Under the pieces are notes generated by a model. The model made no database searches. It saw nothing but the letters and a program-made list of their open reading frames with translations, and was not told where the DNA came from. DNA of 64,000 bases, taken from the NCBI RefSeq assembly GCF_054482525.1, contig NZ_JBTHVG010000007.1. One strand, written 5' to 3'. The stretch comes from a plasmid. The position numbers and the translations under genes are program-made. Positions within the stretch are counted from its first letter, which is position 1. Every line of letters begins with the position of its first letter. Below, in pieces: positions 1,850-32,716 of the stretch.

Positions 1850-4800
1850 TCAGTCTCCGCCCAGGGTTTTCTCTTTCTGCAGGTCACGAACCATATCCCG
1901 CTCCATCTGCTGCAGTCGCTCCTGCAGCAGATTTTCCCGGGCAACCTCCCGGACCGCTTCCCGCACCCGTTGTGGTTCACGCAGTACACTCTCCGGCAGC
2001 GCGGCTTCCCGTTCAGATATGGCAGACCGGTCACGCTCCAGCCCGGCAATATCCCTGACAGCCTGCTCTGTTTTGCCGTCCGGCAGGTCAGGTTTGTTCT
2101 CTGCCATTTTACGGACAATTTCATCCGCACGGCGTTCCGTTTCACGGCGGATGGCCTCTTCAGCCTGCCGCTGTGCCAGTACCTCTGCCGTGACCGGTTC
2201 GCCATTTCCGGCTCCCGGCTGAACGCTGTTGTCCGGGATATCCCCCCACACGCGACCACCGGTGATGGTTCTGGGATTCCACGGACGACCTTCACCGGCG
2301 ATTCTTACCACCACACCGCTGTCAGGATTATCACGGGCAATCCGGACACCATCCTGCATATTATCAGCCAGCAGGCTCTCTCCGTTACGGCTGCCCTGCA
2401 GGGCCACGAACTGCGCATCCCCGCTGCCTTTCACCCGGCCTTCACCACTGAAGCCCCGCAGCCCGTTTCCGTCATCCGTGGTCAGCGGGTTCAGCCAGAT
2501 ACCAGCTGACTTGCCGTTACGGTCAAAAGCCGGCAGTGCCACATACGGCTGCGGATATTTGCGCCCGGGTGCAATAAACCGTGCAGGACTGTCTCCCCCG
2601 GCCAGCCCTGCCTGACGGAGAACGGCACGGCCGGCCACCACGTCCCGCAGCTCCCGCGCCGTACTGAACAGCCGCTCTGCATTCATGACCTCCCGGTCCG
2701 ATTTCGGCTCTAGCACATCGTGGGCAGTTCCTTTCTGTACGGCATTGTTGATGGCATCCGTCCAGCCCTGACGGTTATCGGTGTACACCTGCACATGCTG
2801 CTTCATACGCGACAGGGCCACGTAGGCTGACTCAAAGCCGGCCATCAGTTTCCGGTTACCTTCCGTGCCTTCAAGCGCGATGGCAAAGGTTTCACTTGCC
2901 CCCTGCGCACCGTGGGCGGTGATGGCATAAGCCAGGTCAATATGTTGCTCTGCCCGCTCCTGACCTGGGCGAATCACCCGGATCTGCTGTCCGTCCGACA
3001 GCGTGACACTGTCACCGGAAACCGCTGTCACCGTCCAGACGCTGTTGGCCACATAACCTCGCTCCCGGTCACTCTTCGTGAAGCGCATCCGGTCACCGGT
3101 TCCCACCCGGATGGTGTCCGGGGTGTACAGTGTGACGCCTTCAGCCACCGCCTCCCGGGGCGAAATCAGCCGCGTGTTACCTTCCGCATCCTCCAGGGTT
3201 ATCAGCCCGTCATCCTTGCTGATACCGGCAATCCGGTGATACACACTATCCACCAGGGCAAGGGCATCCGGGTTATTCTCCCAGGTGGAGAGACGACGCA
3301 GTTCTCCGTCACGTATATTCGCTGTGTTCAGGACAGGCACCATGACCTGCTCTTTGCCCAGCTCACCGGCCTTTTCCCGTGCATCATGAATCATGCTGTT
3401 CAGTACGCGCCGGTCCTCATTCAGGTGTGTGACAATCAGCGTCTGCTCCCGTGCTTCCGGTGTCCTGCCGGTATAGTCGCGGACAATGGCTTCATACAGT
3501 GTCATGGGGATATCCGGGAAAGCCTCGCCTTTCAGCATCGCCTTCTGCTGCGCTTCTGCCAGTTTCGCTTCCTGGCTGTGACTGAACTCCGTCACGGAGT
3601 GCTCCGGTGCCCATGCGCCCTCCTGACGGGGAACCTGAGACGGTTTCACACTCTCAAGCCCGGACAGTGCCCTTTCCACATCCCGGTTAATCAGGCTGTA
3701 TACCGCCTCCCGCAGTTCCGGCGTCTGACGCACAATCTCCTTCATGATGACCACATCGGCAGCACTGCGCGTCTGCTGGAGACGGAAAGGCTGACCGGGC
3801 GCGATGGCCTGCAACTGGTCCGTGTCACCACTGGCCACGGCACGACCGCCACCGGCCGCAATCAGGGCGTATGCCCGTGCCATGTCGGTATTGCCCACCA
3901 TAGAGCTCTCATCGAGCAGGAACAGCGTGTTGCTGAAATTCGGCGTTTCTCCGCTGCGCTGCAGCAGCTGCGTGTCATGCAGAAAGGACGCCAGCGTCTG
4001 TGCATCCACGCCGGCGCTGCGCATCTCACCGACCGCACGGTGCGTGGGCCCCAGCCCCACGACACGGGGACGTTCACTCTCCGGCAGCATGTTCACGGCT
4101 GACATCACCGCCCGGAACTGTGTGGTCTTACCCACACCGGCATAGCCCTGCACCACCGTGAAACGGTCGGACGTTTCCAGTATCATGCGGGTAGCGGCAC
4201 GCTGTCCTGATGTCAGTTTCTCCATGAGTTCGCCAGGTACTCTCTCCATCAGTGGCGTGACCGCCTCCTTACCTTCGAGAATATGGCGAAGAATGCTCTT
4301 TTCTGCCTCATACGACGCACGGGAAACCAGCAGGCCTGTGCCATAGCCTTTTGCCACATCCACATACAGTAAATCACCGCGTTTTATCTGCGCATTGATT
4401 TCCCCTCCCAGTTCAGTAAAACTGGTTCCTTCTGCAGCAAACGACTTCGCCTCTGTCAGCAGGTCCACCATGCTGAAGGCCAGGTTTTTACTTTCCACCA
4501 CAGGAAGCGCCAGATGAATAGCCTGCTGTGCCGGCGTGTGAAGCCCGGTTTTCTGCAGACTGATAGCGGTTTCCAGCAATGTCTCACCGGCACGCGCCTT
4601 TATCTGCTCAGAAACCACCGTAAAGGAGGGATGGCGGGCAAGTTTTTCCGCAGTACGGGTTTCATCCAGTGAGGAATACAGCCGGACATCACGACCGCTG
4701 CGGGCCAGACCGTTCAGGGTGGCGTTGTCCATTGCCATCTGTGTGACGGAGGCAAAAACCTTCGCACTGTCGCTGACGGAATGCCCGGGCGTTTCCACCC

Positions 4801-7120
4801 AGCCGTTCTCCAGCTTCAGTGCCATGAATGGTGAATCGCTCACAGGCAGGGAGGCCGGTTCAGCCCGCCCCGGCACAACAACCGTCATCGCATCTTCACT
4901 GACGGATGCCACCTGCAGGCGGTCACCGCCGGAGACGCGGAGTCCGGGAATTTTCCCTGTCACCCTCAGTCGCTCGCCGTCTGCCACCGGCATTTTTTCC
5001 GGCCGGAACAGCGACCAGCTGCTGTCCAGGGAGGAAATACGCACCACCTGCGTTTCATCCTGCGCATCCCGCAGGGTCAGGCTGTTACTCTGCGCCGTCA
5101 CCCGGTCGATAACATAGCGGTCATGACTGCGTGTCTCCGGGTTCCACTGCTCCATCACCATCCCCGGACGGTACATATCCCGCAGATAACGGCTCCGGCT
5201 GTCCAGCCAGACCGGCGACAGGGCGGTCATGGTTACCTCCGGGCGTCCGAGCACGCCCTGTGTTTTCAGCTCACTGCGAATGGCCTGTGTCAGTATGGCC
5301 TGTTCCCGTACCCCGCTGACCTGTGCCACGCTCTCTTCTCCGGCTTTCACGCTGGCAGCAAAATCTCCTGCCAGCCGGGCATAGCGGACATTACGGTCCG
5401 GTTCACTGATGATGGTGGCCGGCCGCTGTTCTCCCCCCTGCCAGCGATATGTGTTCACCCCGGCATCTTTCATGGCCATCAGTGCACTGCCTGTACCGGT
5501 TCGCTGCCCGCTGTCGGTTATCAGGACCTGTACGTTATGACGTGCGGCACCGTCCAGCAGGGTTAACGTCTCTTTCAGGGAGAGTTTTTCGCCCTGGTCA
5601 ACGATAACAGTATTGCCCGGCGTGAAGGCCATGCCCTCCTGCAGCTGACGACGTCCGGTTATCAGCTCACCGGACAGCCGTTCATCCTGCTTCAGGTTCA
5701 TCTGCGAGCGACGGTCAGCGGCGATAATCTGCACCTCCCGCCCCTGCTCCCGGGCCATCATGACCAGCTCCGCCACCCGCTCACGCTGCCCGGCTGCACC
5801 GCCCTGCCCGGACACAATAGCCAGCGACGGGCGATCCTGTGCCAGAACACTGACCGCATCGCTGTAACCGGCCGTCCGGGGGACACTTTTCTCCGGATGT
5901 ACGGTCACCCGGTTCTGTTTCATGATGTCACGACTGAGTGCCCGGACTGACAGCTCATCGAGCACATGAATCCCGGACGTGAACAGCCCCTTCTCACGAT
6001 CGAGGGGGATAAGCTGCTCACGGCTGATGGCCTCATCGATACCGGCGCGTGCCCGTTCAATCACACCATTTTCCGGCGGCAGTATGCCGACCGTTCTGGC
6101 CAGCACGTCCGTGTACGTAAACTGCACTTTGCGTTCACTTAATCCGGCAATGGCCTGTGTCACCGCCTGCTGCACATCCGGCCCGTCCTGTGAAGCGGGT
6201 CCGGGCGTCTGCGTGCGGGTCTCCGCCCGTTGGTCCGCCGCGTCACGATACGCCCGGATGTCGAACCCGGTTTCCTTCAGCGTCTGCATCCATTCAGCCA
6301 TTCTGACTTCAGGATCGACGTGCTGTTTGGATTTTCGCGTATCCAGTGCCGCCACATCCCGGGATTTCAGCGAGGCGTCTTCCCCGACGGCCTCCCGGAT
6401 AGCCTGTGAGCGTCCGGAGAAGGCCTCCACCGGTACGCCCGGCATCTCCCACATACCGTGCTTACCAACCACTTCCGTTTCATAGCCTAGCGCCTCAACC
6501 TGCTCTTTCAGTTTTTCCCGGTAGAGCCTGCCGAAGGCAATCTGATTAGCGTACACATTCTCAATGAACCCCGTTTTCCCCACTTTGTCACTGCTCAATG
6601 TCTTCCACTCGCCGTTATGCTGCGTGACATTGGCCACTACCGCATGTGTGTGTAACTGTGGTTCCTGATCGCGACTGGTGTCGTGGTTAAACAGTGCCAT
6701 CACCAGATTACCGGTCAGCACCGTTTCTGACTGTCCGTCCGTCATAACCCGTGTGGAAGCCAGCGCCTCCACCTGACGGACAGCAAAATCCACGGCCTGG
6801 TTATGTGCATCAATAAGACGTTTATCACCGCCTAACATGGCCATCACGGAGACACTTTTGGGGGCGGAGAAGGTCAGGTCGTAGCCGGGACGATGCTTAT
6901 TACTGCCATCCTGCATGCGGCTTAAATCCGCTCCGTCCGGCAGCTTCCCCTCCAGAAGACGGGTAAAAACATCCTTATCGACGCTGCCCTGCAGCCCCAG
7001 CTGTTCAGCCCCCCTGCCGGCCCAGCGTTCTCCCATGCTGCCCAGCACATAGTAATTATCCTTGTCGGTATAATAGTTACCGGCACTTCCGGCCGATCTG
7101 ACCTGCGCGATACTCATCAT
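1850..7120 (-). CDS. traI: TraI relaxase/DNA helicase I
   Basis: 1756 aa from the internal start MMSIAQVRSAGSAGNYYTDKDNYY (F TraI N-terminus); Walker A GYAGVGKTT; the called ORF extends 7 codons upstream. Confidence 0.95.
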   Translation of the reverse strand: MMSIAQVRSAGSAGNYYTDKDNYYVLGSMGERWAGRGAEQLGLQGSVDKDVFTRLLEGKLPDGADLSRMQDGSNKHRPGYDLTFSAPKSVSVMAMLGGDKRLIDAHNQAVDFAVRQVEALASTRVMTDGQSETVLTGNLVMALFNHDTSRDQEPQLHTHAVVANVTQHNGEWKTLSSDKVGKTGFIENVYANQIAFGRLYREKLKEQVEALGYETEVVGKHGMWEMPGVPVEAFSGRSQAIREAVGEDASLKSRDVAALDTRKSKQHVDPEVRMAEWMQTLKETGFDIRAYRDAADQRAETRTQTPGPASQDGPDVQQAVTQAIAGLSERKVQFTYTDVLARTVGILPPENGVIERARAGIDEAISREQLIPLDREKGLFTSGIHVLDELSVRALSRDIMKQNRVTVHPEKSVPRTAGYSDAVSVLAQDRPSLAIVSGQGGAAGQRERVAELVMMAREQGREVQIIAADRRSQMNLKQDERLSGELITGRRQLQEGMAFTPGNTVIVDQGEKLSLKETLTLLDGAARHNVQVLITDSGQRTGTGSALMAMKDAGVNTYRWQGGEQRPATIISEPDRNVRYARLAGDFAASVKAGEESVAQVSGVREQAILTQAIRSELKTQGVLGRPEVTMTALSPVWLDSRSRYLRDMYRPGMVMEQWNPETRSHDRYVIDRVTAQSNSLTLRDAQDETQVVRISSLDSSWSLFRPEKMPVADGERLRVTGKIPGLRVSGGDRLQVASVSEDAMTVVVPGRAEPASLPVSDSPFMALKLENGWVETPGHSVSDSAKVFASVTQMAMDNATLNGLARSGRDVRLYSSLDETRTAEKLARHPSFTVVSEQIKARAGETLLETAISLQKTGLHTPAQQAIHLALPVVESKNLAFSMVDLLTEAKSFAAEGTSFTELGGEINAQIKRGDLLYVDVAKGYGTGLLVSRASYEAEKSILRHILEGKEAVTPLMERVPGELMEKLTSGQRAATRMILETSDRFTVVQGYAGVGKTTQFRAVMSAVNMLPESERPRVVGLGPTHRAVGEMRSAGVDAQTLASFLHDTQLLQRSGETPNFSNTLFLLDESSMVGNTDMARAYALIAAGGGRAVASGDTDQLQAIAPGQPFRLQQTRSAADVVIMKEIVRQTPELREAVYSLINRDVERALSGLESVKPSQVPRQEGAWAPEHSVTEFSHSQEAKLAEAQQKAMLKGEAFPDIPMTLYEAIVRDYTGRTPEAREQTLIVTHLNEDRRVLNSMIHDAREKAGELGKEQVMVPVLNTANIRDGELRRLSTWENNPDALALVDSVYHRIAGISKDDGLITLEDAEGNTRLISPREAVAEGVTLYTPDTIRVGTGDRMRFTKSDRERGYVANSVWTVTAVSGDSVTLSDGQQIRVIRPGQERAEQHIDLAYAITAHGAQGASETFAIALEGTEGNRKLMAGFESAYVALSRMKQHVQVYTDNRQGWTDAINNAVQKGTAHDVLEPKSDREVMNAERLFSTARELRDVVAGRAVLRQAGLAGGDSPARFIAPGRKYPQPYVALPAFDRNGKSAGIWLNPLTTDDGNGLRGFSGEGRVKGSGDAQFVALQGSRNGESLLADNMQDGVRIARDNPDSGVVVRIAGEGRPWNPRTITGGRVWGDIPDNSVQPGAGNGEPVTAEVLAQRQAEEAIRRETERRADEIVRKMAENKPDLPDGKTEQAVRDIAGLERDRSAISEREAALPESVLREPQRVREAVREVARENLLQERLQQMERDMVRDLQKEKTLGGD

Positions 7121-7201
7121 AAACGTATATCCCTTTGACATATCCCGGTATCAATCCCACAATGGATATACACAAGACATATCCACATAAGGAGGCAAAT
7201 A

Positions 7202-7429
7202 ATGGAAACCACCGTATTTTTCAGCAACCGCAGCCAGGCGGTCAGACTGCCAAAAGCGGTTGCATTGCCGGAAAACGTAAAACGCGTTGAAGTGATTGCT
7301 GTCGGACGAACCAGAATCATTACGCCAGCCGGAGAGACATGGGACGAATGGTTCGACGGACACAACGTCAGCGCCGATTTTATGGATAACAGGGAACAGC
7401 CCGGCATGCAGGAAAGGGAGTCATTCTGA
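7202..7429 (+). CDS. vapB: VapB/MvpA-type antitoxin (AbrB/SpoVT fold)
   Basis: 75 aa METTVFFSNRSQAVRLPKAVALPENVKRVEVIAVGRTRII; stop overlaps the start of the downstream PIN gene (tgatg). Confidence 0.88.
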   Translation: METTVFFSNRSQAVRLPKAVALPENVKRVEVIAVGRTRIITPAGETWDEWFDGHNVSADFMDNREQPGMQERESF

Positions 7430-7827
7430 TGCTGAAGTTTATGCTCGATACCAACATCTGCATTTTCACGATAAAGAACAAACCCGCCAGCGTCAGGGAG
7501 CGTTTTAACCTGAACCAGGGGAGAATGTGTATCAGTTCGGTCACCCTGATGGAGCTGATATATGGTGCAGAAAAAAGCCAGATGCCTGAACGTAATCTCG
7601 CTGTGATCGAGGGATTTGTTTCCCGCATTGATGTTCTGGATTACGACGCTGCCGCAGCCACACACAGCGGCCAGATAAGAGCAGAACTTGCCCGTCAGGG
7701 ACGCCCTGTCGGGCCATTTGATCAAATGATCGCAGGTCATGCCCGCAGTCGGGGACTGATTATTGTGACTAATAACACCCGGGAATTTGAACGTGTGGAC
7801 GGTCTGAGAATTGAAGACTGGAGCTGA
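7429..7827 (+). CDS. vapC: VapC/MvpT-type PIN-domain toxin
   Basis: 132 aa starting MLKFMLDTNICIF (PIN N-terminal acidic residue), translationally coupled to vapB. Confidence 0.88.
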   Translation: MLKFMLDTNICIFTIKNKPASVRERFNLNQGRMCISSVTLMELIYGAEKSQMPERNLAVIEGFVSRIDVLDYDAAAATHSGQIRAELARQGRPVGPFDQMIAGHARSRGLIIVTNNTREFERVDGLRIEDWS

Positions 7828-7835
7828 CCTGTTCA

Positions 7836-9989
7836 TCAGAAATCATCTCCCGGCTCAACATCCTCCCCGCGCTCCCGGTGCACATTGATGTTCACCTCTT
7901 CACGACGCTGCATCTTCTGCTGGATATCCGGATTCTGCTCCCGTTGCCATGCCTCATAAACGGCCATATCCACCACTTCACCGGATTCACTGATCCCGGG
8001 TGGCAGTTGCTGTTCCATCTCTTCTTCCGGTTTCATTTTCAGCTCCTGCTCGATCCCCCCTGCCGGAACATTCACACCTGCATCTGACTTCTTATCGTTG
8101 ATGGCAGGAGACACCGGCTGTTGCGGCTGTTCAGCCTGAGTCACGTCTTCTCCGGAAACAACCTCCGGGACATCCGGTTCGAAGAGGCTGGCCATCTGAC
8201 GACCTTCTGCTTCCCTTGCGGCAAGTACGGCACTCAGACGGTTCTCCATTTCCGGGTTGATGTCACGCGGAATAAACTCCGGAGCGACCTTCGGTCGTGT
8301 CTGATATTTCAGGGAGAGTTTTACTGCCGGATACGGTCCGGGCAGGGTGACATAACAGGTCAGATCCGGCAGAGACTGAATGTCGGAATAACTGACCAGC
8401 GTCTGACGCTCCATATCCTTACCGGTCGATACCCCGTCACGTACCGGATCAGCACCGTAGGAATACTGCTCGCTGGCTTTCAGGTGCTCTTTCTCACCAA
8501 TTTCACCGGCAGCGAACTCTGCAATCTTATGGCTGGGAGAACGGAAAAAGGCACGGGTGTTCATGACGTCAAACAGCGTGGCAGCCGCTTTCTCACCGTA
8601 GATATCTTCCAGCTGGGCATAGGACTGGATACCAAACACATAACAGCCACCGAACTTACGGGCTTCCGGCAGGATCTCCACCAGATCCGGCAGTTTGTGT
8701 AACGTGGGTAACTCGTCACAGAAAAACCACACACGACGGTTACGGTTTTCTCCCATTGCCAGCAGACCACGAATAGCAATGGACAGCCACATGGAGATCA
8801 CCGGCTTCAGGGAGGCATGGGTGTCGGCGTTCGACGAAATAAACAGCCAGCCGTTTTTCTGATCTTCCCGGACACCACGCATCCAGTCACGGATGGTGAA
8901 GGGCTCACCGTTATGCTCAATCCCCTGCAGGTAACGGATGGCTTTCACGTAGTTGGTCAGCACAGCACGGATGGATATGGCCGTTTTCTCGATTTTCTCT
9001 TCCACCAGGTTGGCCGCCGGTGAATTACGCAGGAAGGTACGCAGCTTTTCAATTTTGATGGAAAGCAGTGTGTCCACCAGTTTGCTGTAGCTGCGGTTGG
9101 GGTCATTACGCATCAGGTATGCCGCTTCCGCAAAAATGGTACGTCCTGAACCCTGCCAGAACGGGTCCTCTTTTGTCCCCATCGGGATCAGAGTATTTGC
9201 GGTATTATCAAAATCTGGCTGTGTCAGGCACTCCTTCCACAAATCCCAGGCAGCACAGCGTGCATCCAGCGGATTCAGGATTTTATCGATGGAGGGATCA
9301 TAGTAACTTTTAACAAATTCCCCCGAACGGTCATAAATCACCACCATATCACCACGCTGACGGGCGTAGTTGGCCAGACGACGGATAACCTCCGACTTAC
9401 CGGCCCCGACAGTGCCGTGCAGACAGAAGTTCTGGATTTCAGAATCCCGGATAATCGGCAGATCGCCAATCCGGATATCGGAATCCTTGCCATCTTTTTT
9501 CAGCATCCTGGCCACCTCTTTCGGATTGTCAGTCAGCTGACGACCACCTGTGATTTCATTTTCGCTCTGTTGTTTACCCTGACGCCCCAGAATCCAGGAG
9601 ACAACAAAGAAGGTGATCAGGCAGATAACCAGGGCCACGACAGACGCCAGAACGAATGCCGACCATAACTGCTCACCGCACCAGATCATATATTTATCAT
9701 GCAGTACCTGAGCCGCGTTCATCCGGAAGGTTTTGCCGTAATACTGGATCTCATAGACCGGCTGGGACCTGATTAAATCCCGCATGCCTTCCAGCGTGGT
9801 GCACCACCAGTAAATGCAGCCATTCACAAACGTCTGCCAGCTTATTTTTACCCATAAAACCAGACCAACTAGGATCCAGAAAAAAATAAACAGGCAGTAA
9901 AGTATGATATTGGCGATCTGACTGAACATGCGGATACGCATGGACGCAATCTGACCGCCCTGGGTCATATCCTTTGCGTTAAAACTCAT
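7836..9989 (-). CDS. traD: TraD type IV coupling protein
   Basis: 717 aa, N-terminal transmembrane segments, Walker [13 protein letters not shown]-rich C-terminal tail; same length as F TraD. Confidence 0.95.
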
Positions 9990-11517: not shown

Positions 11518-14340
11518 TTATTGCTTATACTTATCCTGATACTCCTTTGCCCTTTTCATCAGTTCCTGTGGACTGTCAGCCCCGGGCATTCTTTCCTGAG
11601 CCGACTTTTCTTCATTATATTTATTATTCTGAGATAATGCCTCTGTTTTATGGTGATTCTGCAGTTCAGAATACTGTCCTCTTACAATATTTTCCTCGCC
11701 ACGTATGCTGTTCTGAGTATCACCTATATTCCCTTTATATTCTGTGACCATATTATCAACCTGATGTTTTACATCATTACGGATATTACTGTCCTGCGTT
11801 CTTTGCTCAATAATGGCCTGATGTCCCTGATGGTCAGCAATAATATCCTGACTGCCTCCACCCGAAGGTACGCTCTCCATTCCTTTACCAATATCGCCAC
11901 GGGATTCCCGCCAGGCATTATCAACACCAGGCTGTATCTGTTCCTGCACAAAAGACCAGGCCATTGCCCGACGGCGTTCTGCAATCTCCGGCGAACTGGT
12001 ATTTGTCAGAATAGCTTCGGCATCCTGCGGTGCGTGTTTCATCACATACTGTGCAAACTGTTGCGACAAATCTTCGCTCATCTGCCCACTCATGCTTTCA
12101 GTACGGGATGCCATTTCAGCATATTCATGGCTGCGGGTCATATTCGTCGTGTACTGGTCGTAACTCTGTTTCGCTGAATTCAGGGCTGCAGACAGTTGAT
12201 CCACCCGGGAATCAGCATTATTGTCAGTATGGCTGCCGGATTCACTGACTTTGCGACTGGTAAAGTAATCGCTGGCCTCTTTAAAGTCCTTACTGGCTTT
12301 AGCGTCAATATCATGACGAGCATCATAGCTGGCCCGTGAACCACTGCTGGCCTGATGCGCATCATCATCACTCCAGTCAATGCCAGCCCGACCACCACCT
12401 CTAACGCCTAATCCTCCACCAACACCAAGAATTTTAGGTTTAACCCCCCATTCAGCATGAGCATCTCCATACATCCCGGCAGAAGCTCTCGTACTTCTGG
12501 ATGCCAGTTCCTGAGTCGCCTGCTCATTACTGATATTATGCGCCTTCGCATAGCTTTCCACTGCACTGCGCATACGGCTGGCCATCATGGAGTCCTGTGC
12601 ACTCATCGTACTGTCAGCACCACTGGTGACAGAGTCACTGCTCCCCCGGTTAGAACCAAACTGACTGAGCGTGTTCCAGGCACTGGCAATACTGCTGCTG
12701 AAACCATGCAGGGCACTTTCTGCTCTGTTCGACGCCTCCCGGGCCATTTCCTGTTGTGCCACTGCAATCTGACGCGTTGCATTGATACCGACCGGTAAAC
12801 GGGACATCGCTCCGCTTGCATCCATCACCATATTACCGTCACGGGTCTGTGTGGCGGTTGCGCCACTGCCGGTCTGGTACATCATCTGACCAAACGACGT
12901 GGTGCTGTTGGTGCTCCAGCTGAAGCCGTTCACGTTTTCCGTCTGCATGTTGCCGTAGGAGTAATTACCGTCAACCACACTACCTGCCGCACTGGCAGTC
13001 GGGCTGATAGCAGAGGAAGCGAAATGGCTGTACACACTGGAAAATCCGGCCCCAAGCCCCCTGACCATCATCCAGGATAATGGCGGGATCATCATGGAAA
13101 GATACCCGGCAGTGGAAGCCAGATCGGAGTATTTCAGTTGTATCTGTGAAATTTCAGAGAGCACCACCGGCGCACCATTCTGTTTCGCATAAAATGTCAT
13201 GGCACTGTTCAGAATGGCGTACAAGAGTGGCCATGACTGCAGCCACATCAGGGCAAACACATAACCTTTCAGGACAGACAGCGTCAGTTTGTTGAATACA
13301 GCCGCCAGTACCAGGAGCGGGAAAATACCGATGGCGATCCCCGTCAGGATGGTCTGCGTCATGGGCAGTGTCCGCATCGCCACATGACCGATGGAGACAT
13401 GTGCCAGACGTTGTTTCTCCATCGATGACGTGGTGGCCAGATTCACCAGGCTGGCCGAATCACCATTACGTGCGGCATAACTGGTGATCCCCTCCTTCAG
13501 CGCATTGATGGTGACATTCTGGCGGATGATCTGGCTGGCTGATTTACTTGAGCCATAGAAGTAACTGTAACTGTCGCCAATCAGCGTACTGAACAGCAGG
13601 TTAGGATCAGGGCGTCCACCAAATAGCTGCTGGGCATAATAATGCCAGGTTTTTCCGCCACTCTGTGTGTCCAGATTCAGCTTGTCTTTCAGCGAAACCG
13701 ACGCGTCCTTACAGGTTACGAAATTATTATTGCTGTCATAAACGCCCCGCAGCGGGCTGGGGCGGGAAAAAATCAGCGTGTAGGGATCAGCGGAGGCCAT
13801 CAGCTCCTCCAGCGTGTATTTGTGGTTCAGGTAAATATCCCCCATAACACAGTTCTGCACATAATCCTGGAAAAGATTGGCGATTTCCGGATTGCGGGAC
13901 AAAAAGTCGGTGCTTTTTGATACCAGTTCTGCGCCAAACAGCATCCCCGTTTTGCTGTAGGTGACACTGTCCGGTTGCGTGAAGATCATCTCGTAACTGG
14001 CCACCATTGCATGCCCGATACGGGTCGTCAGTGAAAGTGGCATCGCCAGTCCGACCGGCACATTATCCACCCGGTGAACTTTGACCAGGTCACTGTTATC
14101 AATAATCTGCACCGATGTGCGGACATTAACCAGCAGGCTGATAAGCACAAATACGGCCACCCAGCCCAGCAAATCCATCACGTTGTGCCGCTGTACCCAC
14201 ATTACGGCCACCGCGAGAACAGACAATGTGAGCGCAATTTTTTCAATGGAATCCCACGTCCTGGTTCCCATAAAGGCGGCAATGGCGTTCAGGTTATTCC
14301 GCAACCACTCACCACCGGCAATCACATAAACTTCATTCAC
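11518..14340 (-). CDS. traG: TraG mating-pair stabilisation protein
   Basis: 940 aa, size and position match F TraG; polytopic N-terminal half. Confidence 0.9.
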   Translation of the reverse strand: MNEVYVIAGGEWLRNNLNAIAAFMGTRTWDSIEKIALTLSVLAVAVMWVQRHNVMDLLGWVAVFVLISLLVNVRTSVQIIDNSDLVKVHRVDNVPVGLAMPLSLTTRIGHAMVASYEMIFTQPDSVTYSKTGMLFGAELVSKSTDFLSRNPEIANLFQDYVQNCVMGDIYLNHKYTLEELMASADPYTLIFSRPSPLRGVYDSNNNFVTCKDASVSLKDKLNLDTQSGGKTWHYYAQQLFGGRPDPNLLFSTLIGDSYSYFYGSSKSASQIIRQNVTINALKEGITSYAARNGDSASLVNLATTSSMEKQRLAHVSIGHVAMRTLPMTQTILTGIAIGIFPLLVLAAVFNKLTLSVLKGYVFALMWLQSWPLLYAILNSAMTFYAKQNGAPVVLSEISQIQLKYSDLASTAGYLSMMIPPLSWMMVRGLGAGFSSVYSHFASSAISPTASAAGSVVDGNYSYGNMQTENVNGFSWSTNSTTSFGQMMYQTGSGATATQTRDGNMVMDASGAMSRLPVGINATRQIAVAQQEMAREASNRAESALHGFSSSIASAWNTLSQFGSNRGSSDSVTSGADSTMSAQDSMMASRMRSAVESYAKAHNISNEQATQELASRSTRASAGMYGDAHAEWGVKPKILGVGGGLGVRGGGRAGIDWSDDDAHQASSGSRASYDARHDIDAKASKDFKEASDYFTSRKVSESGSHTDNNADSRVDQLSAALNSAKQSYDQYTTNMTRSHEYAEMASRTESMSGQMSEDLSQQFAQYVMKHAPQDAEAILTNTSSPEIAERRRAMAWSFVQEQIQPGVDNAWRESRGDIGKGMESVPSGGGSQDIIADHQGHQAIIEQRTQDSNIRNDVKHQVDNMVTEYKGNIGDTQNSIRGEENIVRGQYSELQNHHKTEALSQNNKYNEEKSAQERMPGADSPQELMKRAKEYQDKYKQ

Positions 14341-32026: not shown

Positions 32027-32716
32027 TTAACGCGTATTTATGATACACATAGCCTTCTCGTATAAATAATAAATAAACTTTTTATTGTAGAGTAAGATAA
32101 TTAACTCATCTTTATTAGAAACAGAGAAGTAGTCGCATATCAGAGATGCGTGTTTCTTTGATGTGGAGATGGATATATTTAATATTCTTGCTATAGCATT
32201 ATGACTGATTCCGGTGCTATATAAGTAAAAGACATCATTTACATATGATGATACAGAAGAATCATCACTCATTCTTCTGATTATATTTCTGATATCATCA
32301 CTGACAATCGTTTTTTGATTATAACTGTCTTTATGACGAACATGAGCAGCATCATAAAATTGCCACAGAATAATATTTCTGTGTCCATTAAGAAATGACT
32401 GGACAGATATTGTCCAGAATCTGTTCTGAATAAAAACATCCTCTACAAGATTAAGATGCGTATGCTCATTCCTGTATGCTTCCATCTCTGTGACAGAGAT
32501 CAATTCACAAAAATCTCTCTGCGACAGAAGCCATTTTTCAGCACTTTGATCTTGTGTAAGAAATGACTCATGAAACAGCGTATTGCAAAAAATAAATTTT
32601 CCAGTTTCGTCCCTGATACAGGCTGGATTTGGATAATCCTGAATAACTGCCGTCAGATTTTCCAGCAGATCTATTTGACGAGCATGTTTTTGTTGAATAC
32701 GATCCATCGGATACAT
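32027..32716 (-). CDS. traJ: TraJ transfer activator
   Basis: 229 aa from MYPMDRIQQKHARQIDLLEN; the called ORF is extended 27 codons upstream. Confidence 0.85.
   Translation of the reverse strand: MYPMDRIQQKHARQIDLLENLTAVIQDYPNPACIRDETGKFIFCNTLFHESFLTQDQSAEKWLLSQRDFCELISVTEMEAYRNEHTHLNLVEDVFIQNRFWTISVQSFLNGHRNIILWQFYDAAHVRHKDSYNQKTIVSDDIRNIIRRMSDDSSVSSYVNDVFYLYSTGISHNAIARILNISISTSKKHASLICDYFSVSNKDELIILLYNKKFIYYLYEKAMCIINTR

Follow-up and report, generated by a model that had tools for sequence, protein, structure and literature searches.

A vapBC toxin–antitoxin module in the traD–traI spacer of an IncF plasmid segment, with 'trbH' as its antisense frame and a candidate translated bridge

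The stretch of DNA analyzed here, hereafter the window, spans 64,000 nucleotides (nt) of a plasmid (NCBI RefSeq assembly GCF_054482525.1, contig NZ_JBTHVG010000007.1). Our subject is the spacer that separates traD from traI, two genes of the transfer (tra) operon that are read from the minus strand. In this spacer, the plus strand carries the type II toxin–antitoxin (TA) module vapBC, and the minus strand, over the same interval, carries a 239-codon open reading frame (ORF) that corresponds to the 'trbH' of the F plasmid. The features of the locus are as follows.

1850-7120, minus strand: traI, relaxase/helicase (ORF list and RefSeq annotation of an identical plasmid)
7117-7836, minus strand: 'trbH' ORF, antisense to vapBC, 239 codons, proposed bridge ORF
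7122-7145, plus strand: vapO2-like operator repeat (GTATAT..CATATCC), containing the -35 element TTGACA at 7135-7140
7158-7163 and 7164-7184, plus strand: -10 element CACAAT and vapO1-like inverted repeat GGATAT-N9-ATATCC, respectively
7202-7429, plus strand: vapB antitoxin, 75 amino acids (aa), with an AbrB/SpoVT-type N-terminal domain and a Shine–Dalgarno sequence, AGGAGG, at 7190-7195
7429-7827, plus strand: vapC toxin, 132 aa, a PIN-domain tRNA(fMet) endonuclease by homology
7828-7835: gap of 8 nt between the convergent stops of vapC (7825-7827) and traD (7836-7838)
7836-9989, minus strand: traD, coupling protein, with its stop TGA at 7838-7836 (ORF list, tblastn, and RefSeq annotation of an identical plasmid)

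The coordinates that the first-pass annotation had given for vapB, vapC, traD, traI, and the 239-aa ORF all hold on re-reading. The minus-strand ORF of traI extends over 1850-7141, with the F-type start MMSIAQ corresponding to the ATG at 7120-7118, and its product shares 97% amino acid identity with F TraI (tblastn). Neighboring genes in the spacer are tightly interlocked: the vapC ATG overlaps the vapB stop as TGATG (7427-7431), the trbH ATG overlaps the traD stop (also TGATG), and the trbH TGA overlaps the traI ATG (ATGA). Read on the minus strand, the first two bases of the 8-nt gap, TG, combine with the A of the traD stop to make the trbH ATG. The earlier description of vapC and traD as converging with about 8 bp between their stops and no hairpin is borne out, as 8 nt were counted and a consensus scan found no terminator-like hairpin in or beside 7828-7835. 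Consensus scanning detected nothing promoter-like on the spacer's minus strand, and an Rfam search gave no RNA family within the spacer. The 239-aa minus-strand product, described earlier as featureless, indeed has no match in Pfam or NCBIfam. Because vapBC is oriented against the tra operon, a transcript running from traD into traI is antisense to vapBC, a point already made from the sequence and required by the geometry.

Profile searches bear out the initial naming of the plus-strand pair as VapB and VapC, recovering both the AbrB/SpoVT and the PIN domain with scores well beyond chance. VapB matches Pfam PF04014 (E = 3.5e-5, residues 6-48) and NCBIfam NF040493 (110.6 bits, cut-off 60). VapC matches the PIN family PF01850 (E = 2.1e-21) and NCBIfam NF010285, 'tRNA(fMet)-specific endonuclease VapC', with residues 1-132 aligned to a profile of 132 positions (289.1 bits, cut-off 143). 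At the level of known structures, VapC is identical at 130/132 positions (98.5%) to Shigella sonnei VapC (PDB 6SD6, chain C) and VapB at 73/75 to the VapB of the same entry; both proteins also match 3TND, 5ECW/5ECY, and the F-plasmid entries 9H6A-D, and the VapC scores against 3TND and 9H6A-D nearly equal that against 6SD6. Residues D7, E42, D98, and E119 (Shigella numbering), which we take to be the conserved acidic active-site residues, are all present in the translation of the window VapC. Given its 98.5% identity to the Shigella enzyme, we infer that this VapC would cleave initiator tRNA(fMet) in the anticodon loop. By analogy with near-identical proteins, for which these properties are known, VapC would be a PIN-domain endonuclease of initiator tRNA(fMet), neutralized by VapB, and the two would assemble as a hetero-octamer.

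Upstream of vapB, a promoter is predicted at 7135-7163 (TTGACA-17-CACAAT; scan score 10/12). The same region holds two copies of a 24-nt direct repeat, 39 bp apart at 7122-7145 and 7161-7184, which contain the half-sites GTATAT/GGATAT...ATATCC, and the vapO2-like repeat directly adjoins the traI start codon. The predicted promoter/operator region is kept in 9/9 aligned homologues, from E. coli to Azotobacter. Two operators placed over the -35 and -10 elements are the predicted layout of type II TA autoregulation, in agreement with the Salmonella system, where the vapO2/-35 and vapO1/-10 arrangement, with vapO1 overlapping the -10, was demonstrated experimentally, together with Lon-dependent VapB turnover and conditional cooperativity (PMC3378870). 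The VapBC complex would repress its own promoter through two operators, one covering the -35 (7122-7145) and one next to the -10 (7164-7184). Since VapB would be degraded by Lon, cells that lose the plasmid would be poisoned, which would stabilize the plasmid in the population.

The module had been placed by the first-pass annotation 'in the slot F assigns to trbH'. This is accurate in that the minus-strand ORF is F's trbH (a spacer ~97% identical and the same 239 codons), and misleading in that nothing was displaced, F itself carrying the same vapBC; the locus is better worded as the same DNA as F trbH. In the RefSeq record of F (NC_002483), vapC and vapB are annotated between traD and traI, and the window spacer aligns with that of F at ~97% nucleotide identity and no internal gaps; it follows that 'trbH' is F's own vapBC read in an antisense frame. 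A megablast of the spacer against PLSDB returned 1,178 records from Escherichia, Salmonella, and Shigella, 1,166 of them full length, and vapB/vapC is annotated between traD and traI in the listed records. At a threshold of 99% identity to the window spacer, about 400 plasmid records remain, and the 761-bp spacer query is identical to pM160133_p2. Very probably, the spacer is the vapBC module (formerly mvpAT, or STBORF1/2) native to F and to many F-like plasmids, with 'trbH' as its mirror frame. Radnedge et al. are said to have noted in 1997 that STBORF1/2 overlap trbH completely on the opposite strand, and that interrupting trbH had no effect on stability.

The presence of vapBC in the trbH slot of F-like plasmids is thus already known: it has been annotated and crystallized, and work on it has addressed both plasmid stability and antibiotic tolerance. 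In pSLT, the vapBC2 module, a homologue of Shigella mvpAT, was reported as 'encoded within the trbH gene' (PMC5065971), F-plasmid VapBC has been solved structurally, with antibiotic-tolerance mutations at the VapB N-terminus (PMC11796401), and a 2025 preprint on Shigella shows trbH as 'as-trbH', an antisense transcript with no assigned function.

Both strands of the spacer are open, and we compared them by substitution analysis across loci with vapBC in the traD–traI slot, namely F (L001), Shigella pSF5 (L007, with tra remnants only), Escherichia albertii (L008), pSLT (L002), and Pantoea (L004), and across two loci outside it, E. coli L003 (traT–traD) and Salmonella Onderstepoort L005 (after traX). 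Between the window and its homologues, the ratio of nonsynonymous to synonymous divergence (dN/dS) is 0.03-0.11 for vapC and 0.06-0.13 for vapB. The trbH frame is the exact complement of the vapC codons, and its dN/dS over vapC is 1.2-5.7. Differences concentrate at vapC wobble positions (39/47 between the window and pSLT, 66/97 between the window and Pantoea), and identity in the TrbH frame falls to 45-50% while VapC holds 83%. For deep pairs, TrbH-frame identity is 0.33-0.50 versus 0.40 +/- 0.04 in simulations in which synonymous codons are chosen independently under VapC constraint alone. In the same plasmid pairs, the synonymous distance (dS) of vapBC falls inside the range set by its neighbors traI and traD or exceeds it. 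By none of these three measures (dN/dS, simulated identity, vapBC dS) is purifying selection on the TrbH amino acid sequence detectable. The plus strand is the strand selected for protein, as the dN/dS values, the wobble differences, the simulated identities, and the undepressed vapBC dS together show, and the TrbH sequence is without detectable selection.

The openness of the trbH frame is a separate matter. We assembled a slot set of 12 sequences, each with vapBC flanked by intact traD and traI. These fall into five lineages: the F clade; pSLT with the Salmonella IncFIB plasmid L023; Pantoea L004 and L018; an Enterobacter metagenome-assembled genome, L016; and Serratia L025-L028. Between deeply separated slot lineages, the vapC dS is at least 1.4 or saturated. 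In 12/12 sequences, the trbH frame contains no stop over the whole spacer, giving ORFs of 239-260 codons. The first codon of the ORF, an ATG, takes its A from the last base of the traD stop (TGATG; TAATG in L016), and in all five lineages the closing TGA overlaps the traI ATG. Spacer lengths of 715, 751, 766, 778, and 781 nt are each 1 mod 3, and in the segments that do not code for vapBC (81/117/120 nt and 8/23/35 nt) every length difference is a multiple of three, as is each of the four inferred insertion or deletion (indel) events in plus-strand non-coding DNA. Within the gap, five slot sequences all keep the TG that completes the trbH ATG but differ freely at the six remaining bases.

About 4% of the single-base changes that are synonymous in vapBC create a stop in the trbH frame. 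Over at least 205 differences among the slot lineages, the prediction is 8.2 stops and the count is zero (Poisson P = 3e-4; P = 0.017 at half the rate). The 12 slot sequences share the three features that we propose for a bridge cistron, namely overlapping start and stop codons, a frame kept through indels, and fewer stops than expected. Another sequence, from Serratia sp. B1 (L021; CP123617.1, 3480-6440), was considered as a slot copy with a broken frame and set aside, its vapC being frameshifted and its traI and traD appearing only in pieces. In AP028492, which is 99.7% identical to it, vapC (as mvpA) and traD are annotated as intact, and the disruption in L021 is likely a sequencing or assembly artefact, or a sign of a decayed plasmid.

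Close homologues of vapBC occur at three positions of the tra operon, in the traT–traD interval, in the traD–traI interval, and beyond traX, and at all three they are antisense to tra transcription. Those outside the slot lie at the following coordinates, with further copies in L030-L032.

3074-3699 of L003: vapBC homologue, traT–traD
3580-4205 of L024: vapBC homologue, traT–traD
3076-3701 of L005: vapBC homologue, after traX

The traT–traD copies contain two (L003) and three (L024) stops in the trbH frame, and three other copies contain two (L011), three (L019), and one (L022). Non-enteric vap homologues have 1-6 stops, except for one copy of 64% GC content that has none. An open frame is found in 5/5 slot lineages versus 1/11 elsewhere (Fisher's test, p = 0.0014); the slot-derived L005 is also without stops.

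A natural control is provided by a Salmonella clade (L005, L030-L032) in which the same cassette sits just past traX, at the end of the operon; L005 and L032, at least, keep a remnant of the traD tail. At a vapC dS of 0.36-0.59, this clade has gained one stop in L030, one in L031, and three in L032. Those inside vapBC all arise from vapBC-synonymous changes (Leu40 CTG>TTA, Leu28 CTC>CTA, and Thr11 ACC>ACT before CAG), and about three were expected over ~65-90 differences, with three seen. The trbH frame decays after relocation of the cassette, at about the rate expected without selection.

How the arrangement arose can be read, in part, from the junctions. Where vapBC is missing, traD and traI adjoin directly, as TAATG in L003 and with a 6-nt gap in L024. 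In Serratia, the traD side of the cassette bears a second copy of the first ~18 nt of traI (ATGATGAGCATTGGCCAA; L025 4228-4270, 3470-3490), such that the bridge ORF begins ATG ATG AGC ATT GGC CAA, a duplicate of the true traI start ~780 nt downstream; the Pantoea junctions are likewise duplicated. In S. proteamaculans L029 (4270-4950), a 226-aa N-terminal fragment of TraI, annotated as 'MobF family relaxase', lies between traD and vapC, upstream of the bridge ORF. Since copies of the traI start flank the cassette and the junctions without vapBC adjoin, the vapBC cassette appears to have been inserted at an overlapping traD/traI junction that was duplicated in the process, and the bridge ORF appears to have inherited the ancestral ribosome-binding site and start codon of traI.

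Taken together, these comparisons lead us to favor, with moderate confidence, the reading of trbH as a translated bridge ORF without a selected protein product, in which selection would act on translation itself and not on the peptide. Overlapping stop and start codons (TGATG, ATGA) can couple the translation of adjacent cistrons, and translation protects long operons from Rho-dependent polarity. Following the proposed scheme, the former start codon of traI, which overlaps the traD stop, would serve as the start of trbH; ribosomes that have finished traD would go on translating through the 715-nt antisense stretch until they stop on the traI ATG, and selection would keep the frame stop-free and in register. 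As the frame is open and in register up to the traI ATG, ribosomes could pass from traD to traI over the TA operon, and either the translational coupling of the two genes would be preserved or the transcript would be shielded from polarity. The first-pass annotation had treated the two strands as alternatives. The plus-strand genes are indeed genuine, and the comparison suggests that both strands are translated, the plus strand for its proteins and the minus strand only as an open frame from traD to traI. We know of no described 'product-less' bridge across an antisense cassette, and a search of the literature found neither such an ORF nor any account of the upkeep of the trbH frame.

Several observations weigh against a bridge. 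Under a null model built from tra codon usage, Pantoea and Enterobacter have a probability of ~0.5-0.6 that the frame is open by chance, versus 0.05-0.14 in F, pSLT, and Serratia, and CTA, one source of antisense stops, is avoided in nearly all homologues compared (1/~130 CTN codons). The slot lineages share ancestry, and lineage counts are not fully independent. A marked C-rich, G-poor tract, as expected for Rho loading, was not found in the minus-strand RNA of the spacer, and for want of such a tract, Rho protection is not separated from simple coupling. In L003 and L024, the frame is broken even though the tra transcript presumably crosses vapBC there too; an open frame is therefore not needed wherever tra transcription crosses the module, and its upkeep is seen only where a pair of once-coupled genes has been split. 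Maneewannakul and Ippen-Ihler reportedly found in 1993 that a kan insertion in F trbH caused no loss of transfer, for which reason any benefit of the bridge may be quantitative. The F homologue of vapBC is also said, in the 1997 work of Radnedge et al., to have failed to stabilize a test plasmid.

The codon-usage null and the mutational-opportunity test described above were used in place of two other null models. The first, in which synonymous codons were shuffled inside vapB and vapC, returned P = 1 for several sequences and was dropped as uninformative, since vapB and vapC there have no TTA, CTA, or TCA to permute. The second took the four-fold third-position composition of each gene as its basis and gave P = 0.01-0.04; it was dropped as too strict, because CTA is avoided nearly everywhere.

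Three other explanations of the open minus frame and its setting deserve consideration. The one that fares best is regulatory, and we regard it as possible though doubtful: convergent transcription of tra and vapBC would interfere, by collision of RNA polymerases, by antisense pairing, or by a VapBC–operator roadblock at the traI start. The geometry speaks for it, with convergent stops 8 nt apart, no terminator-like site found at their junction, no promoter-like site found on the minus strand of the spacer, vapO2 adjoining the traI ATG, vapBC antisense to tra at each of its three positions in the operon, and the 'as-trbH' antisense transcript reported in Shigella. However, the synonymous distance over which vapBC has diverged alongside traD and traI is similar to theirs or higher, which points to long coexistence with a working tra operon and not to conflict. 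Such interference is plausible from the geometry, and it is compatible with a bridge.

Less probable still, and in our view improbable, is that the open frame is a by-product of codon usage. The antisense stops arise only at the rare codons TTA, CTA, and TCA, and the overlaps at either end could simply descend from the ancestral traD/traI junction, as a stop/start junction exists without vapBC (TAATG in L003). The null probabilities given above favor this explanation, and so does the avoidance of CTA outside the slot too, with one exception. It accounts poorly for the enterobacterial copies outside the slot, which carry 1-3 stops, and for the contrast between the relocated clade, with three stops over ~65-90 synonymous differences (matching the 4% expectation), and the slot clade, with none over at least 205; all four inferred non-coding indels being multiples of three, and the invariance of the ATG-completing TG beside six variable bases, argue in the same direction.

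That trbH is a true protein-coding tra gene overlapping vapBC, with a functional product, is very improbable: the ORF of 239-260 codons is open in every traD–traI lineage, with coupled start and stop codons and frame-preserving indels, and is probably translated given the ribosome-binding context that it would have inherited from traI, but it has no Pfam or NCBIfam match, its dN/dS exceeds 1 over vapC, its 33-50% identity between lineages is no more than VapC constraints alone give, the synonymous sites of vapBC are not slowed relative to traI and traD, its length differs in block-sized steps (239, 250, 256, or 260 aa; 281 aa in L029), and its disruption reportedly affects neither transfer nor Stb activity.

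If trbH is a translated bridge, several observations would fall into place. It would account for 'trbH', unexplained since the F tra region was sequenced, in a classic conjugative plasmid, and the Shigella 'as-trbH' antisense transcript would be a relic of tra expression. An operon would have taken up an inverted selfish cassette and kept the coupling of an essential downstream gene, offering a clean natural case of selection for translation itself. For annotation, the lesson would be that an ORF may stay open and in frame without encoding a selected protein.

The wider window is a typical segment of an IncF plasmid, as it brings together the FinP and traJ 5' untranslated region (32710-32821, Rfam), a sok antitoxin RNA of the hok/sok type I system (38768-38944, minus strand, Rfam), an alpha/beta hydrolase gene (165-1025), traX, and the full tra block. 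Two antisense RNA families that lie inside traI and traG were also matched above the Rfam gathering threshold on the plus strand, AS-traI at 4195-4271 (103.7 bits) and AS-traG at 13536-13621 (63.9 bits).

How does this locus compare with known systems? With coupled cistrons in general, trbH shares, in every lineage, a start on the upstream stop and a stop on the downstream start; it differs from them in that its product is unselected and the ORF is antisense to a TA operon. The VapBC of the Shigella flexneri and S. sonnei plasmid pINV (MvpAT, STBORF1/2) occupies the same locus with the same flanks, as traI and traD remnants, at ~98% nucleotide identity, and its operators and vapB/vapC overlap are the same as in the window. 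The tra operon of pINV is defunct, whereas traD and traI of the window are intact. At the protein level, VapB residue 7 is F in the window and L in Shigella, and VapC has R32, S80, D124, and I128 in place of K32, T80, G124, and T128 of S. flexneri pSF5; a polymorphism at VapC residue 32 has reportedly been linked to differences in pINV retention between Shigella species. The vapBC2 of pSLT sits in the same slot, in a spacer of the same 715 nt, with 87% nucleotide identity to the window and a dS of ~0.6-0.7, and contributes to plasmid stability according to the literature. The F plasmid has identical architecture and spacing and the same 239-codon minus-strand ORF, and the window departs from it only by point differences in VapB (L7F, N54H, S55N) and VapC (V43L, T80S, L89R, G124D). 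Codon 7 of the window VapB (7220-7222) encodes Phe (METTVFF) where F, Shigella, pSLT, and all other aligned homologues have Leu, and at this same residue L7P is among the F-plasmid mutations reported to give antibiotic tolerance and stronger plasmid stabilization (PMC11796401).

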